A stretch of DNA of 64,000 nucleotides from Eledone cirrhosa (taxonomy: Eukaryota), in the NCBI GenBank assembly GCA_964016885.1, contig OZ024741.1:43648001-43712000 (forward strand), written 5' to 3'. Position 1 is the stretch's first letter. The number at the start of each line of letters is the position of its first letter. The notes under the pieces were generated by a model. It had not been told where the DNA came from and did not search any database. It saw nothing but the letters and a program-made list of their open reading frames with translations. The translations under genes were made by a program, and so were the position numbers. Below are positions 18,602-63,197 of this stretch, piece by piece.

Positions 18602-18925
18602 AAGTGGTTACACAACAGTTAGTTCACCATACCGAGAACAATTGTTTCACCTTTGCGGATCTTCAGCTCGGGATGTGTATAGCGGCTTCTCACAATCTAC
18701 CACCTACTCTCCAACTAGCAACAACACCATTAAGAAAAGTAAGCGCATCAATAGACAAACTATCTGAGAAAGATAACCATACACATCCCGAGCTGAAGAT
18801 CCGCGAAGGTGAAACAATTGTTCTCGGTATGGTGAACTAACTGTTGTGTAACCACTTCTACCTAACTCTTCCCTTGGACTGAGTGCTCTACCACTACGGA
18901 TATTACCTTCCAGTGTTTCACCACT
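18602..18925 (+). mobile_element. Non-coding asymmetric fold-back element, family B (two opposed HHRs)
   Basis: 18602-18680 is inverted relative to ~18778-18857, followed by a ~66-nt unpaired tail. (TA)n on both sides. Same family at 47510-47938. Confidence 0.88.
18788..18827 (+). ncRNA. Minimal type I hammerhead (family B); inverted twin at 18632-18671 on the minus strand
   Basis: ccgag-CTGAAGA-tccgcgaaggt-GAAAC-aatt-GTT-ctcgg, with palindromic stem III ACAATTGT. Confidence 0.87.
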
Positions 18926-18962
18926 ATATATATATATATATATATATATATATATATATATA

Positions 18963-19618
18963 TAACGAAGGAAATGTGGTAAGGAACCAGGTGGACCATA
19001 ACGCACCAAAGTACTCAATACTTGAGGTAGTAGAGTGGGTAATAGGAACCAGTAAGACCCCGACAGCTGAGCTCAAGCCGTTTCGACGGCTAATTCTGGA
19101 CTAAATGAAAATTTATCCTGGTATTTAAATAGCCGATCTTCTCAAGGGGTAATTCCATATATGGTCAAAGTGATTGTCAAAAATCAGTAGTAATTCTGTG
19201 GTTGCAAATTGGTAGGGGAGATGGTGGCTAAACCTGCCAGTAGGAGAAAGAGGGGAGGGGGTGGAGTAGACCCAATCAAGCGTTGGTAGTGCCAGCTACA
19301 GCTAGGCATGAGGTCAAAGAAGATACAGGGGAGGGGGAGGGGGAGGAAGTCGGAACGGTAGGTAGCTGGCACTACCAACGCTTGATTGGGTCTACTCCAC
19401 CCCCTCCCCACTTTCTCCTACTGGCAGGTTTAGCCACCATCTCCCCTACTAATTTGCAACCACAGAATTACTACTGATTTTTGACAATCACTTTGACCAT
19501 ATATGGAATTACCCCTTGAGAAGATCGGCTATTTAAATACCAGGATAAATTTTCATTTAGTCCAGAATTAGCCGTCGAAACGGCTTGAACTCAGCTGTCG
19601 GGGTCTTACTGGTTCCTA
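18963..19618 (-). mobile_element. Non-coding asymmetric fold-back element, family A (longest copy)
   Basis: ~255-bp near-perfect arms (19043-~19297 and ~19361-19618), a ~60-bp spacer and an ~80-nt unpaired tail (18963-19042). (TA)n flanks. Confidence 0.9.
19511..19604 (+). ncRNA. Type I hammerhead, U3-A8 core variant (family A); twin at ~19056-19150 on the minus strand
   Basis: acccc-TTGAGAA-gatcggcta...tagccgtc-GAAACggct tgaactc agctGTC-ggggt. Other copies show a perfect stem III, ACGGCT/AGCCGT. Confidence 0.72.
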
Positions 19619-20990
19619 TATATATATATATATATATATATATATATATTTATTTATTTATTTATATATATATATATTTATTTATTTATATATATATATA
19701 TGTATATATGTATATAAAACCTTTATACTATCTACATTCTACTCTGCTGAATATTGAGTGGTAATTGAGTGAAAATAATGTGACTGAAAATAATGTTCTT
19801 GGTGAGAGTGGGACTTTATATTGGTAGTGTGGATGGGAAATGCAAGCCTGTACATTTTCTTCCACTCTATCAACCCCAATATACGATATAAAGAAATACA
19901 TCGTAGAAAGTCTAAGTGATGAAATTTCTTTTGCTAAGGGATTGATTCACTTGGATTAAAACAGACAAAAAAAAAATGGAAAGATGTATCCTTGAGTCTG
20001 TACTAATCACACATCGTTTATTAGATGCTCTCAAACCATTTTTGATTCGTTTCAGTGGTGGAATCATATCAATGAAAAGAGGTCACGACCACAACTCACA
20101 ATTGTATCACGTTATCCTTATTTCTACTATTGATTTCAGTTTTTATTAGATGTCTGATTCCTCTGCAGTACACTTTTGCTTTTTATTGCTCCGATATTTC
20201 TGTTTCATCGTCATTATAAATATTATTGATATATATATATATATATATATATATATATATATTATTTGTATGAATATTAGTGTACCTATCATCTCCATCA
20301 TCACCACCACCACCGTCCTCGTCATCATCACCCTCATCACCACCCACACCCCCATCACCACCACCACTATTATCACCATAGTTATGATTTATATCTATGG
20401 CGAAGTAATTGTCTCTATGTAGATAAGTTCTGTCATGTACATTTGATACAATTTATAATATATTATCGGCATTATATTAATACAAATAATATATTACTGT
20501 CTGATAGAGGGTTACCGTACAGCGAATAAATATTCTTCAGATATTTGAAGAGACACTAAAAATAACTTAGAATTAATTGTCATGAATATTTAAATGGTAA
20601 AAAGCAACCTATTTTTGATAATTTGATTAGTGATATGAAATGAATATACAATTTTATCGAGCAATAAACAGAAAAAAGGTAGCCATATTTTTATAGTGTT
20701 TATATTTTTTATTCAAATCTAATCTGATAAATTTATTATATTCTTCTTATATGAATATTTATAAAAATTAGATTGCTTGTATATCAAGTTGGTGGTGGTT
20801 TAAGTGTAAGTAACATGTTTTTCGTTTCATGTTTTACTGTGACGCATCAGTCCACTTCATAAGCCATTTTTCATGGGTTTTTTAGAGAGAATCCTTCTCT
20901 CGATAGTGAACATAAATATCCTTGAAGTCTACAGCTGTTATTCTTATCATACTGAAGAATATATTTTTTGCGCTTATTATTATATTTTAC

Positions 20991-21148
20991 ACGGTGGATT
21001 AGCAGTATCGGTAGACGATCGGATGCCATAATTTGCAGCATAGAGTTACGTCCCTTTACTGCCTGAGTTCAAATCCCACATACGTTAACTTTGCCTTTCA
21101 TCCTTACGGGGTCGATAAAATGAAGTACCAGTAACATACTGGGATAAT
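20991..21148 (+). mobile_element. tRNA-derived SINE, family 1
   Basis: Same head and central block as 908-1100. Confidence 0.8.
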
Positions 21149-21156
21149 TCAATAAT

Positions 21157-60216: not shown

Positions 60217-60435
60217 TGGTAATTGGCAGTATCGGTAGAGGGTCGGACGTAATGCTTTGCAGCATAGAGTTACGGTCTTTTATGATCTGTGTTCAAATCC
60301 CGCCGAGGTTAACTTTGACTTTCATCCTTGCGGGGTGGATAAAATAACGTACCAGTCACGCACTGAGGTCGATCTAATCGACTCCCCCCCCCCCCAAAAA
60401 AAAAAATTACTGGCCTTGTGCCTATACTAGAAATC
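60217..60435 (+). mobile_element. tRNA-derived SINE, family 1
   Basis: Head ttggcagtatcggtagaggg, B box, central block and ggccttgtgcc tail. Confidence 0.8.
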
Positions 60436-62618
60436 ATTCTTAAAAGGAAGTAGATAAGTCAGTGATTGTAATTATGTCATAGTTTCAGCTCATCATAATT
60501 TTCAAAGGAAGATAAGCTCGGTTGAATCGCAGTATTTGTGGAGAGTCGCATACAATACTTTACGTTCTGAGTTCAATTTCCTTCCAAGATAAATAAAAGA
60601 GAGTACCAGACATATATTTAAGCCCATGTAATCGACTTGCCTCTTCTCACAATGTGTTGGCCCTATATCCTAAATTATACATTTTAATTTCAAGCAATAA
60701 CAACTTTTCCACAATTAGCCTTCTGTTAGTTATTTAATTAAGCCGACATATATATAATTGCCCTACTTACATTGCTAACTTCGAATATAATCGTAGACAG
60801 AATTCAGACTAGTATGTATTGTCAACATATATGTCATGATATACATCACATCTTCCCACCCTTGGTCCTATATACCACAGGTGCTCTTTTGGTACTCTTC
60901 TGTATATCTTTCACAATGAAATGTTAGCCGAGGTCAACGTTCTTTGATCATCCGATTTATTTCTGAATGGTTACCATACGGACAGTGTTACTGCCACTTC
61001 CGCTCCATGGCTATATATAGCAAACATCAAGACACTTTAATGTTCCTTTCATGAATGCACATATCTCGCTGCCATTTAAGAACAAAAGTGATTAGGAACA
61101 CCATCATCTGTGTTCTCACTGCCCATGCCTAACATTTCTTGTTTATTATACCATTACCAGAGCGAATCAATAATGGAAAATCTGTGTTTAGAGTATTGTA
61201 AGTATTATTATCCTAGAGATTTTAAAGTTTAGGTTCCCAATTCGGCGTTCCATGTAGACTGGCGAAACTCTAATCTTTGTTAATAACAAAGAGCCATAAT
61301 CTAATCAATCGATCGATATCGGTTCTCTGATTAAATTAAAACATATTTCAGCCTCATCGCAATTGCTTTGGCTAAATTCAATAATTTCCACGATGCTCTT
61401 TCATTTCTAAATAGAGTTCCTAGACGTCAGTCGATATGTTAGTATTAACAGCTAGACAAGTTTCAAAGCACTCTTTATTTTCTTTAATAAAAGGTAGTAC
61501 ACACTAGATAATATACATTACAAACACTTTTTGAACAGAGTGAATATAACTCCTGTGACTGGAAGTCTGTGTCTGAATTACTGAATTATTGATAAATAAC
61601 AACAAACATCTCAAAATATTAATTTTTAACAGTTCTAATTTGAGATTCTACAGCACATGATGGATCCTCCGTCAATGTTAAACTGGAGCATTCATTTTAT
61701 CAATCAACTGAGCTTCCAGGTCATGAATTAGCGTGAAATTGGCCGAATATTTTAGTGACGTACGCATTTTAACTAAATTTTCCAGCTGAATTAGTGTGTG
61801 ACATTTTATATGAAATTGGTGAGCCTTTCATTTATTGGTTTAATATATCTGACGATCTCCTATACGGTTTTCGTCTACCCAATTTTATTCACAAGTTTCT
61901 GGGCATATCCGGGACTAAGTTAAAGACACTTGCTTGCGACAGTTACCTCCGTAGTGAGATCAAAAGCATATGGCGGAGAAATAATCTTAACCACCGCCAT
62001 ATCTGCGAACCTTTATATCATATGTAGTGTCGCTAGATACCGTTCGCCATATACGTATATTTACTCCTAATTAAATCATATTGAGTTTACTATTCCCAAC
62101 AAATCACCTAAGCAGTTCGTAGGCATCGGTTTGGCGGACACTGCTCATATGATCATAAGTAGAATATTTAATAGCTTGGTGTGTTATATTAATATCGGCA
62201 GCATGACGCTGGCAGTTCGTTGCAAAGTGATACAACATATCTAATATGTTAGTCTTGCTGCAAATAAAATATGACGTTCTTATGAACTATAGAATACTTA
62301 AATATCTAATATCATAAATTGAGAGTATATACATTTATAAAACGGTTATTTCTTGTTTTTAACCATGTTCCACCTGTTATTTGAATCATATAGAATATAT
62401 TAAGGGAGAACACATTATTTCAATACCGGATGTATCGTTATATAAAATTTAAAGACTAATCATTTCAAGTCGGTTAGGTTACCCACTGCCACTTCCAATG
62501 CAGACTAAAATGATTTCAAGAAACGTTGTTAGAATAATTTTCATGGCGCTATCTAATATTCAGTTGAACAGAGAGTGAAGTAATTCACTGAATCACACTA
62601 TATATATATATATATATA

Positions 62619-62840
62619 TTTATTAAAATAACAGATTAAAGTTTAAGCAAAGAATCGGTGCTTTCACCCTTAACGGGATCTTCTGAAGGGTGACCCCGTT
62701 AAGTGTGAAAGCAGTGATTCTTTGCTTAAACTTTAATCTGTTACTTTAATAAATATTTGCTCTACGGTTCTTATATATTTGATATATATTTATCCTTATC
62801 GAGCCCTGTTTGGATTTTAGTCTTCAAATTTATTATTACT
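62619..62840 (+). mobile_element. Family C fold-back (second copy)
   Basis: Same arms and tail as 45592-45813, with a different apex junction. Confidence 0.85.
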
Positions 62841-63002
62841 ATATATATATATATAAATATATATATATAGTATATATATATATATATATATATATATATA
62901 TATATATATATATATATATATATATATATATATATATATATATATATATATATATATATATATATATATATATATATAGAGAGAGAGAGAGAGAGAGAGA
63001 GA

Positions 63003-63197
63003 TAACGAAAGAAATGTGGTAAGGAAACAGATGGACCATAACGCACCAAAGAACTCAATACTTAGGGTAGTACAGTGGGTAATAGGAATGAGTAGGACCC
63101 CGACGGCTGAGCTCAAGTCGTTTCGACGACTAATTTTAGTCTAGAATTAGCCCTCGAAACGGCTTGAGCTCAGCCGTCGGGGTGTTATTCGTTCCTA
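63003..63197 (-). mobile_element. Family A fold-back
   Basis: Tail plus palindrome with apex at ~63138. Short arm ends at ttccTA. Confidence 0.88.

Follow-up and report, generated by a model that had tools for sequence, protein, structure and literature searches.

Unequal-arm hairpins of Penelope-like elements in the Eledone cirrhosa genome point to priming at two fixed RNA sites

Introduction

A 64,000-nucleotide stretch of the Eledone cirrhosa genome (assembly GCA_964016885.1, contig OZ024741.1, positions 43,648,001 to 43,712,000; hereafter the window) carries an element with a long open reading frame (ORF), termed family N, and a series of small inverted repeats of five families, A to E, in which one arm runs further than the other. 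Our explanation of this layout, to which we assign a probability of about 0.8, is that the hairpins would be doubly 5'-truncated insertions of Hydra-clade Penelope-like elements (PLEs) or of their passengers, formed by priming from both strands of a (TA)n target at two fixed sites on the element RNA.

Parts of this architecture are already on record in the literature, which is cited throughout from partial texts. A tail on one of two inverted pseudo-long terminal repeats (pLTRs) has been published (PMC3846280; PMC8557442), as have two reverse transcriptase (RT) starts bounding the tail (PMC11167929), and hammerhead pairs on opposite strands, 100-700 bp apart, together with the U3-A8 variant of the hammerhead core (PMC4209133). 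Retrozymes have been presented as PLE derivatives (bioRxiv 10.64898/2026.07.22.740005). The origin of PLE tails and of inverted and tandem pLTRs is termed open (PMC8557442; PMC11167929), and an annotation of octopus repeats, possible context only, is silent on Hydra elements and hairpins in the text at hand (PMC13282606).

Results

The ORF element of family N occupies positions 12082 to 16541 of the window. Within elements, we number positions from the tail end (0) on the strand that carries the hammerhead. The N copy opens with an inverted, 5'-truncated arm (12082-12739, minus strand) that stops at the short site (-74), followed on the plus strand by a partial 5' pLTR with its tail, which continues into the 5' untranslated region (UTR; 12736-12870). 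An RCTC..GAGY stem lies beyond the tail end (12876-12951); it is paired in the minimum-energy fold, which is no better than that of shuffled sequences. The ORF (12966-15125, plus strand) encodes, in one reading frame, an RT first and a GIY-YIG endonuclease (EN) last, and is broken by a single in-frame TAA at 14406-14408. A type I hammerhead motif follows (16366-16433, plus strand; predicted cut after 16428), and then the tail from the short site to the tail end (16468-16541, plus strand), with an RCTC..GAGY stem at 16471-16491. Selenocysteine readthrough of the ORF was considered and rejected, since the stop is TAA and other genomic N copies, unlike the one in the window, are open for 719 codons.

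Pfam returned no match for the RT/GIY-YIG ORF. Its translation reads RWK, DKT, CSCx5C, CTLC and CPH (CPQ in the window copy), and that of family A reads RWR, DKT, CNCx5C, CNLC and CKH. The sequence-only reading had called the autonomous element a Naiad with the same geometry as the hairpins. The geometry held; the name did not, as the EN is C-terminal rather than N-terminal, the motif is DKT rather than DKA, and a hammerhead is present. Because the domain order and motifs match the published features of Hydra (PMC8557442), we place N in the Hydra clade.

The hairpins are given here without strand. Family B is represented by B1 (18602-18925), with a short arm at 18602-18680 (minus), a long arm at 18779-18925 (plus) and hammerhead cores at 18666 (minus) and 18793 (plus), and by B2 (47510-47938; long arm left, short arm right). 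Family A comprises A1 (18963-19619), A2 (42727-42917), A3 (49421-49628) and A4 (63003-63198), as well as a solo arm at 43864-43924 (minus strand) and a hairpin of two long arms at 45954-46215. In A1 the left arm is long (minus) and the right arm short (plus), both arms bear a full U3-A8 hammerhead motif, and a stretch resembling a TATA box and initiator (Inr) lies within hammerhead stem II. A2 likewise has its long arm on the left. C1 (45590-45808) and C2 (62616-62840) each have the short arm left and the long arm right. The D1 hairpin (36037-36622, hammerhead core at 36436) joins a short arm (minus) to a long arm made of a partial and a full 320-bp ORF-less unit; D2 (40004-40621) has the same layout and is older. 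The E hairpin (34491-35098) consists of a short arm (34491-34594, minus) and a long arm (plus) that amounts to one ORF-less tandem unit of about 500 bp.

Self-comparison and direct reading of the window confirmed every listed element at its stated position and bore out much of what had been claimed for them. They are head-to-head inverted repeats with unequal arms, set between (TA)n or other microsatellites, and the longer arm, said to run about 40-90 nt further, has a tail of 36-84 nt by alignment (79 nt in A, 62-63 in B, 84 in C, 36 in D, about 66-76 in E and 74 in the ORF element). Each family thus has two 3' ends, 36-84 nt apart. The claim of one uniform layout holds for the listed elements but not for the two-long-arm A hairpin. 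That the short arm stops at a TA is likewise correct, but the tail end of A, C and the ORF element, and less clearly that of B and D, also falls on a TA or TAT that is common to element and target. Finally, the elements are non-coding in general, except that the B1 loop (18681-18778), compared by eye, contains a piece of the B ORF. This loop suggests a template switch during insertion.

Several observations tie the hairpins to PLEs. Upstream of A lies a GIY-YIG C-terminus, and a whole Hydra ORF is found in A tandem arrays with a 3.54-kb unit. Searched with the N protein by tblastn, long B copies contain a Hydra ORF upstream in the same orientation (about 47-50% identity), and in 11 of 30 long C loci an EN end is found some 0.8 kb upstream, also in the same orientation (35-48% identity). 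Autonomous PLEs with the same ends exist for A, B, C and the ORF family of the window; the sequence-only reading had proposed to look for autonomous elements with the same pLTR. N and A both have a hammerhead near the 3' end and a (TA)n target, the A core being U3-A8 or C3-A8. A hand-made, minimal hammerhead descriptor, relaxed after a first, stricter version had missed A, B and D, matches N, A, B and D, giving 13 matches in the window, where 30 shuffles averaged 0.17; it finds no hammerhead in C or E, and in C the core is altered and stem I absent. Rfam returned no hammerhead family and only sub-threshold, mostly microRNA (miRNA)-like hairpin matches. As judged from sequence, A, B and C are the 3' ends of Hydra-clade PLEs, and there is little doubt that the hairpins originate from PLEs. 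Two full-length A arrays, each of four head-to-tail copies with a period of about 3.54 kb, lie at G000:C1:91476617-91487262 and C1:437200348-437210959 and are candidate sources of tandem RNA.

D and E differ from these families in their units. D is an ORF-less unit of about 320-323 bp in partial tandems with a type I hammerhead, and no Hydra ORF adjoins it in 25 loci; E is an ORF-less tandem unit of about 500 bp on which the hammerhead descriptor gives no match. The inverted arms of D end at -35 to -39 in 18 of 21 cases, the opposite end being the tail by selection. In all six E loci with both ends visible, which were picked by likeness to the window copy, a short arm is paired with a long one. 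D and E are putative retrozyme-type ORF-less passengers with short head-to-tail units.

The genome-wide abundance of these structures, in a genome of 3.0 Gb, allows their ends to be counted. One 32-mer of A has 12,976 exact matches, and exact patterns for short hairpins find 6,004 in A, 669 in B and 3,476 in C, with no matches for reversed-pattern controls. N also forms short hairpins, three of which occur in a sample of 1.064 Mb (the window, ten neighbouring and 90 scattered 10-kb stretches, chosen with disregard of repeats); the exact hairpin pattern for N had no genomic match, probably because N is very AT-rich, and this result was not used. Within that sample the 3' ends of A are bimodal: of 61 arms, 31 stop at the tail end and 21 at the short end, with nine elsewhere, so that the arm stop is fixed rather than random, as had been proposed (52 of 61 at one of two sites).

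The two ends are combined by a strict rule. With an exact pattern spanning both short-site positions, in which one base per side sets the class, 5,811 of 6,004 A hairpins (96.8%) are mixed, against the 50% expected if arms of the observed frequency (0.506) combined independently; the others are long+long (135) or short+short (58). The two-long-arm hairpin of the window thus belongs to an exceptional type that accounts for about 2%. Among the listed short+short cases, one turned out to be a mutated long arm, and most of the exceptions that were fetched are genuine. In B, 47 hairpins are mixed, three short+short and none long+long among the 50 listed of 669, and the A pairs of the 1.064-Mb sample comprise 16 long+short, one long+long and four unclassed (one cross-pairing was dropped). 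The rule extends to full-length N copies. Where the left arm is tail-ended, the right end lies at -74 in four of four copies, and where the left arm ends at -74, the right end is the tail in three of three, including the window copy, both as predicted from the left arm; one copy with an unclear left end was left unclassed. Of thirteen N copies in which no inverted arm is visible, seven end at the tail and five at -74, and one gave no match.

As had been claimed, the inner junctions differ between copies, which appear to be independent insertions: 50 A hairpins taken in order of position have 48 distinct junctions, with two recurring pairs. In 14 of these the short arm extends beyond the long one on the 5' side by more than 5 nt, in ten the reverse holds, and in 26 the two agree within 5 nt; some long arms consist of the tail alone. 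Junctions carry microhomology or A/T-rich fillers that differ between the arms, and centres of 0-1 nt occur in 287 A and 65 C hairpins. A short arm with sequence that its long partner lacks cannot have been copied from that partner by fold-back, barring a later deletion at the centre. At five loci (L192, L201, L238, L247 and L326), long untemplated A/T-rich runs, sometimes arm-specific, occur with short stutters at the common 5' stop described below and recall reiterative synthesis by a telomerase-like RT.

The arms of one hairpin share a subfamily, their identity being 0.943 to their own partner and 0.869 across hairpins (13 pairs, none of 20,000 permutations; a fourteenth pair, L100, was left out since one arm could not be located), and four arm variants are shared against 0.46 when shuffled. 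This likeness is compatible with a shared RNA, a shared source locus or subsequent conversion. The proposal that each insertion joins two oppositely oriented complementary DNAs (cDNAs), with priming at the tail end for one and at a fixed internal TA for the other, is compatible with every test run, and two separately primed cDNAs per insertion are very likely in our view.

A further regularity concerns the 5' ends of the arms in A and C. Forty-nine of 100 A arms end at -139 to -146 and only one beyond, although the pattern reached about -170; genome-wide, 22,010 arms reach -139 and 4,017 go on to -147, raw counts that include mutation or subfamily change in those eight bases. In the window this wall is the stop of both arms in A3 (-143/-144) and A4 (-141/-143), and the solo A arm spans the stretch from the wall (-140) to the short end. 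The wall of C lies near -159, at C's own copy of TTAGTY, and both walls stand at the A of this motif, which we take to resemble an initiator. In tandem copies a TATA-like box lies 29 nt upstream of the A wall.

An untemplated G precedes the wall A, where the element has T, in 46 of 51 A arms. Wall-to-wall junctions carry C/G (by symmetry) in 42 of the 50 listed for A and 45 of the 50 listed for C, and an extra G is present in five of six cases in C, three of these being from one cluster. Because the extra G occurs on both arm types (nine long arms, two short arms) and with many differing partners, it does not stem from one master copy. In L1, an extra G at the RNA 5' end is a mark of the cap (PMC11702581). 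Five of 100 arms hinted at a clustering of ends where the hammerhead cuts, but this was not upheld, direct joins there being six of the 100 listed. Arms extend 40 nt beyond the cut site, in agreement with the use of uncleaved RNA as template in vitro (PMC11167929). Taken together, the A and C cDNAs are likely to have run off a capped RNA end. At locus L366 (G000:C1:27009300-27010250), a 257-bp A tandem has two units that both start at -143 and read beyond the tail into the ORF start; this structure suggests that the RT jumped templates at the 5' end of the RNA.

Finally, RCTC, a loop of 8-68 nt and GAGY lie within about 4-8 nt downstream of nine of 11 end sites: at both sites in A, N, C and E (the tail-site offset in E assumes an end at the far side of a TA-rich stretch) and at the short site in B. 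The tail-side copy in C was predicted before the sequence was viewed and then found. Minimum-energy folding pairs the stem at seven of nine sites. Since the stem on the tail side is located downstream of what is copied, it would be present only in tandem RNA or in RNA that reads through from a pLTR into the 5' UTR, a location that matches the need in vitro for RNA downstream of the starts (PMC11167929). As it is not itself copied, solo hairpins would be dead ends. Whether a dimer with two stems sets the two priming sites is, to our minds, an even question.

Discussion

These observations suggest that both nicked strands of the (TA)n target prime the RT at two different fixed sites on the element RNA, and that the two cDNA ends are then joined head-to-head. 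Each site could be set by its own copy of the short RCUC..GAGY stem, 4-8 nt downstream, with one stem per protomer of a dimeric RT-EN, a notion helped by the published prediction of a dimer (PMC11167929). In A and C, priming would usually take place on the 5' pLTR copy, and the products may be so small because the RT reaches the capped 5' end, and runs off it, about 60-75 nt into one cDNA and about 140-160 nt into the other. Since the second stem, downstream of the tail, is left out of the copy, a full-length insertion would depend on a tandem transcript or a template jump. A stricter version, which we hold tentatively and at somewhat less than even odds, is an obligate, programmed twin priming in which a dimeric telomerase-like RT-EN engages two tandem stem-loops at the capped end of one transcript and each of its halves primes one strand of the cut (TA)n immediately upstream of its own stem, so that an abortive 'double strong-stop' hairpin would be the default and real copies would arise only via tandem RNA or a template jump. 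If true, a single rule would account for tail, inverted pLTR and partial-tandem layout alike.

The layout could arise in other ways. A tail-primed cDNA could snap back and copy itself as far as the internal TA, the short end being a resolution site that is joined to the other target strand. Earlier work has put forward self-priming as the origin of inverted PLE junctions (PMC3846280) and EN-mediated resolution as that of the tail (PMC8557442); such fold-back would account directly for the one-of-each pairing and the shared arm subfamily, and 26 of 50 A hairpins do have arms of near-equal reach. However, short arms with sequence missing from the long arm (14 of 50), long arms that are tail only, centres of 0-1 nt that offer no loop, fillers that differ between arms, and the five of 13 full-length copies that stop at the short site without a visible hairpin all speak against it, as do the RNA-templated starts at the short site already seen in vitro for Poseidon (PMC11167929). 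Later asymmetric deletion at palindrome centres could imitate part of this evidence, and we regard fold-back as improbable. The interpretation of the elements as miniature inverted-repeat transposable elements (MITEs) or as non-autonomous DNA transposons of another type, which a DDE transposase would copy into TA as units, can draw on their small size and TA-flanked inverted repeats, on recurring junctions (two pairs among 50; 287 of one type) and on a mariner fragment that adjoins D1. It is exceedingly improbable given arms that are unequal and occur in both orientations, 48 of 50 distinct junctions, and arms that are the 3' ends of RT elements with hammerheads, continuous with Hydra ORFs. 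The mariner fragment has no sequence in common with the hairpin arms in the self-comparison of the window, and no DDE transposase with matching ends was found in the window, no genome-wide search having been made.

A narrower alternative leaves the rest of the two-site model unchanged and attributes the A and C walls to stalling of the RT at RNA structure, namely hammerhead stem II, instead of to a capped end. The A wall does lie inside the long stem II loop, many of the extra bases are C and some are A/T runs, and B, D and N give no clear cap signal. Stalling is made unlikely by the shared stop of two families at the A of TTAGTY, with an untemplated G, by the TATA-like box 29 nt upstream in A tandem copies and by L366, where two tandem units restart at -143.

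A number of points weigh against the priming model or its parts. Every mechanistic step is read from DNA. The overlapping arms would require strand displacement on one RNA, or two RNAs, and arm similarity cannot tell either route from subsequent gene conversion. In the genome-wide counts, one base on each side decides whether an arm is classed as long or short, and the Poseidon start sites in vitro are equal between strands, which alone predicts no strict pairing (PMC11167929). As to the cap, the extra base is G in 23, C in 23 and A in one of 47 arms with another partner end, where the C class may be a 5-nt stutter, and solo A arms show 19 G, 28 C and three A among 50. B and D lack a sharp wall, the extra-base test in N was uninformative or negative (one G, one A and 98 T among the 100 listed), and an off-wall control pattern for C had no matches, so that the G bias has no matched off-wall control. 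D has no RCTC..GAGY stem at either site, nine of 11 folds are no more stable than shuffles (two beat them), and an autonomous partner of D or E was not found.

Among known systems, the C-terminal EN+ PLEs of the Hydra clade (Craig et al., 2021; PMC8557442) are the closest in kind, sharing RWK/RWR, DKT, CxCx5C, GIY-YIG, CxxC and CxH as well as the hammerhead, the (TA)n target, the inverted 5'-truncated copy and the tail at one end. The tails of the present Hydra families are 62-84 nt, against a published 30-40 bp, their copy numbers are very high, and neither the strict long/short pairing nor the tiny ORF-less hairpins are described in the available part of that paper. The Poseidon element PAc, studied in vitro (Frangieh et al., 2024; PMC11167929), likewise has two internal starts bounding the tail, with both strands nicked and extended; its template is a pLTR-ORF junction RNA, RNA downstream in the ORF is required, hammerhead cleavage is dispensable and a dimer is predicted. 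Poseidon is of another clade, and its starts are reported as nonhomologous to the target and not strand-specific (PMC11167929), whereas most starts here share TA/TAT with the target and pair one-of-each. The Poseidon text, as far as it was available, reports no cap run-off or doubled stem.

Head-to-head pLTRs with an optional one-sided tail are also found in Penelope elements of Adineta vaga (PMC3846280) and in the opposite-strand pairs of minimal hammerhead ribozymes (min-HHR) in Schistosoma (PMC4209133), with further likeness in the TATA/Inr of the pLTR, the U3-A8 core variant and the occurrence of the motifs mostly in truncated copies; in the consulted parts of these papers the layouts are ascribed to self-priming or left unexplained, without pairing statistics. 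Twin priming of L1 (PMC11702581) is similar in that the second target end primes internally, a head-to-head inversion arises by end joining and an extra G occurs. In L1 the second site is variable and the arms barely overlap, whereas here the site is fixed and the arms overlap fully. D, with its ORF-less tandem of about 320 bp and type I hammerhead, and E, with its tandem of about 500 bp, resemble non-LTR (non-long terminal repeat) retrozymes (bioRxiv 10.64898/2026.07.22.740005), from which they differ in inserting with PLE-type inverted arms and two fixed ends and, in E, in having no detected hammerhead; the main text of that preprint, in its available part, never uses the word 'tail'.

The elements are therefore a variant of a known PLE architecture, to which three quantitative features are added that open the mechanism to direct tests, and the idea of the sequence-only reading is less new than it implied, since the tail, the inverted truncated pLTR and two RT starts are published. 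Strict one-of-each pairing, cap run-off or a wall, and a doubled stem in PLEs were not found in the literature searched, which excluded supplements and most subscription journals. Thousands of minimal insertion products yield countable rules, namely 97% one-of-each pairing, a common stop with a cap-like G in two families and a stem beside the starts, and these rules single out individual bases for mutation in the in vitro assay that already exists. Tens of such hairpins per megabase could otherwise be filed as MITEs or miRNA-like hairpins.

Other Features of the Window

Hairpins of different families are often stacked in one (TA)n (an A arm and D1, B1 and A1, C2 and A4). The A arm beside D1 is an older solo arm with a tail at 36672-36792, immediately adjoining that hairpin. 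On the other side, the end of a mariner transposase fragment (HTH_48; 35542-36075, minus strand) adjoins the (TA)n that contains D1. A further ORF-less tandem unit, of 419 bp and with an inverted arm, lies at 52123-53836 and 1332-1693; it has minimal hammerhead cores at 52348 (minus), 53525 (plus) and 1603 (minus) and resembles another retrozyme-type family. A direct duplication of about 320 bp at 50903-51748 contains a match of the hammerhead descriptor at 51418 that may be due to chance. The endonuclease end of yet another Hydra-like family is found as a fragment at 31764-32510 (minus strand; tblastn E 5.6e-13).

A dispersed family of about 150-190 bp occurs at 908-1096, 20990-21149, 35251-35413, 41059-41250, 56966-57065 and 60222-60365, and several degraded copies of another RT element, direct and inverted, with weak matches to RVT_1, occupy 9217-10480 and 22271-30832. 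A broken, Helitron-like Rep/PIF1 helicase coding region, with matches to PIF1, extends from 3313 to 7059.

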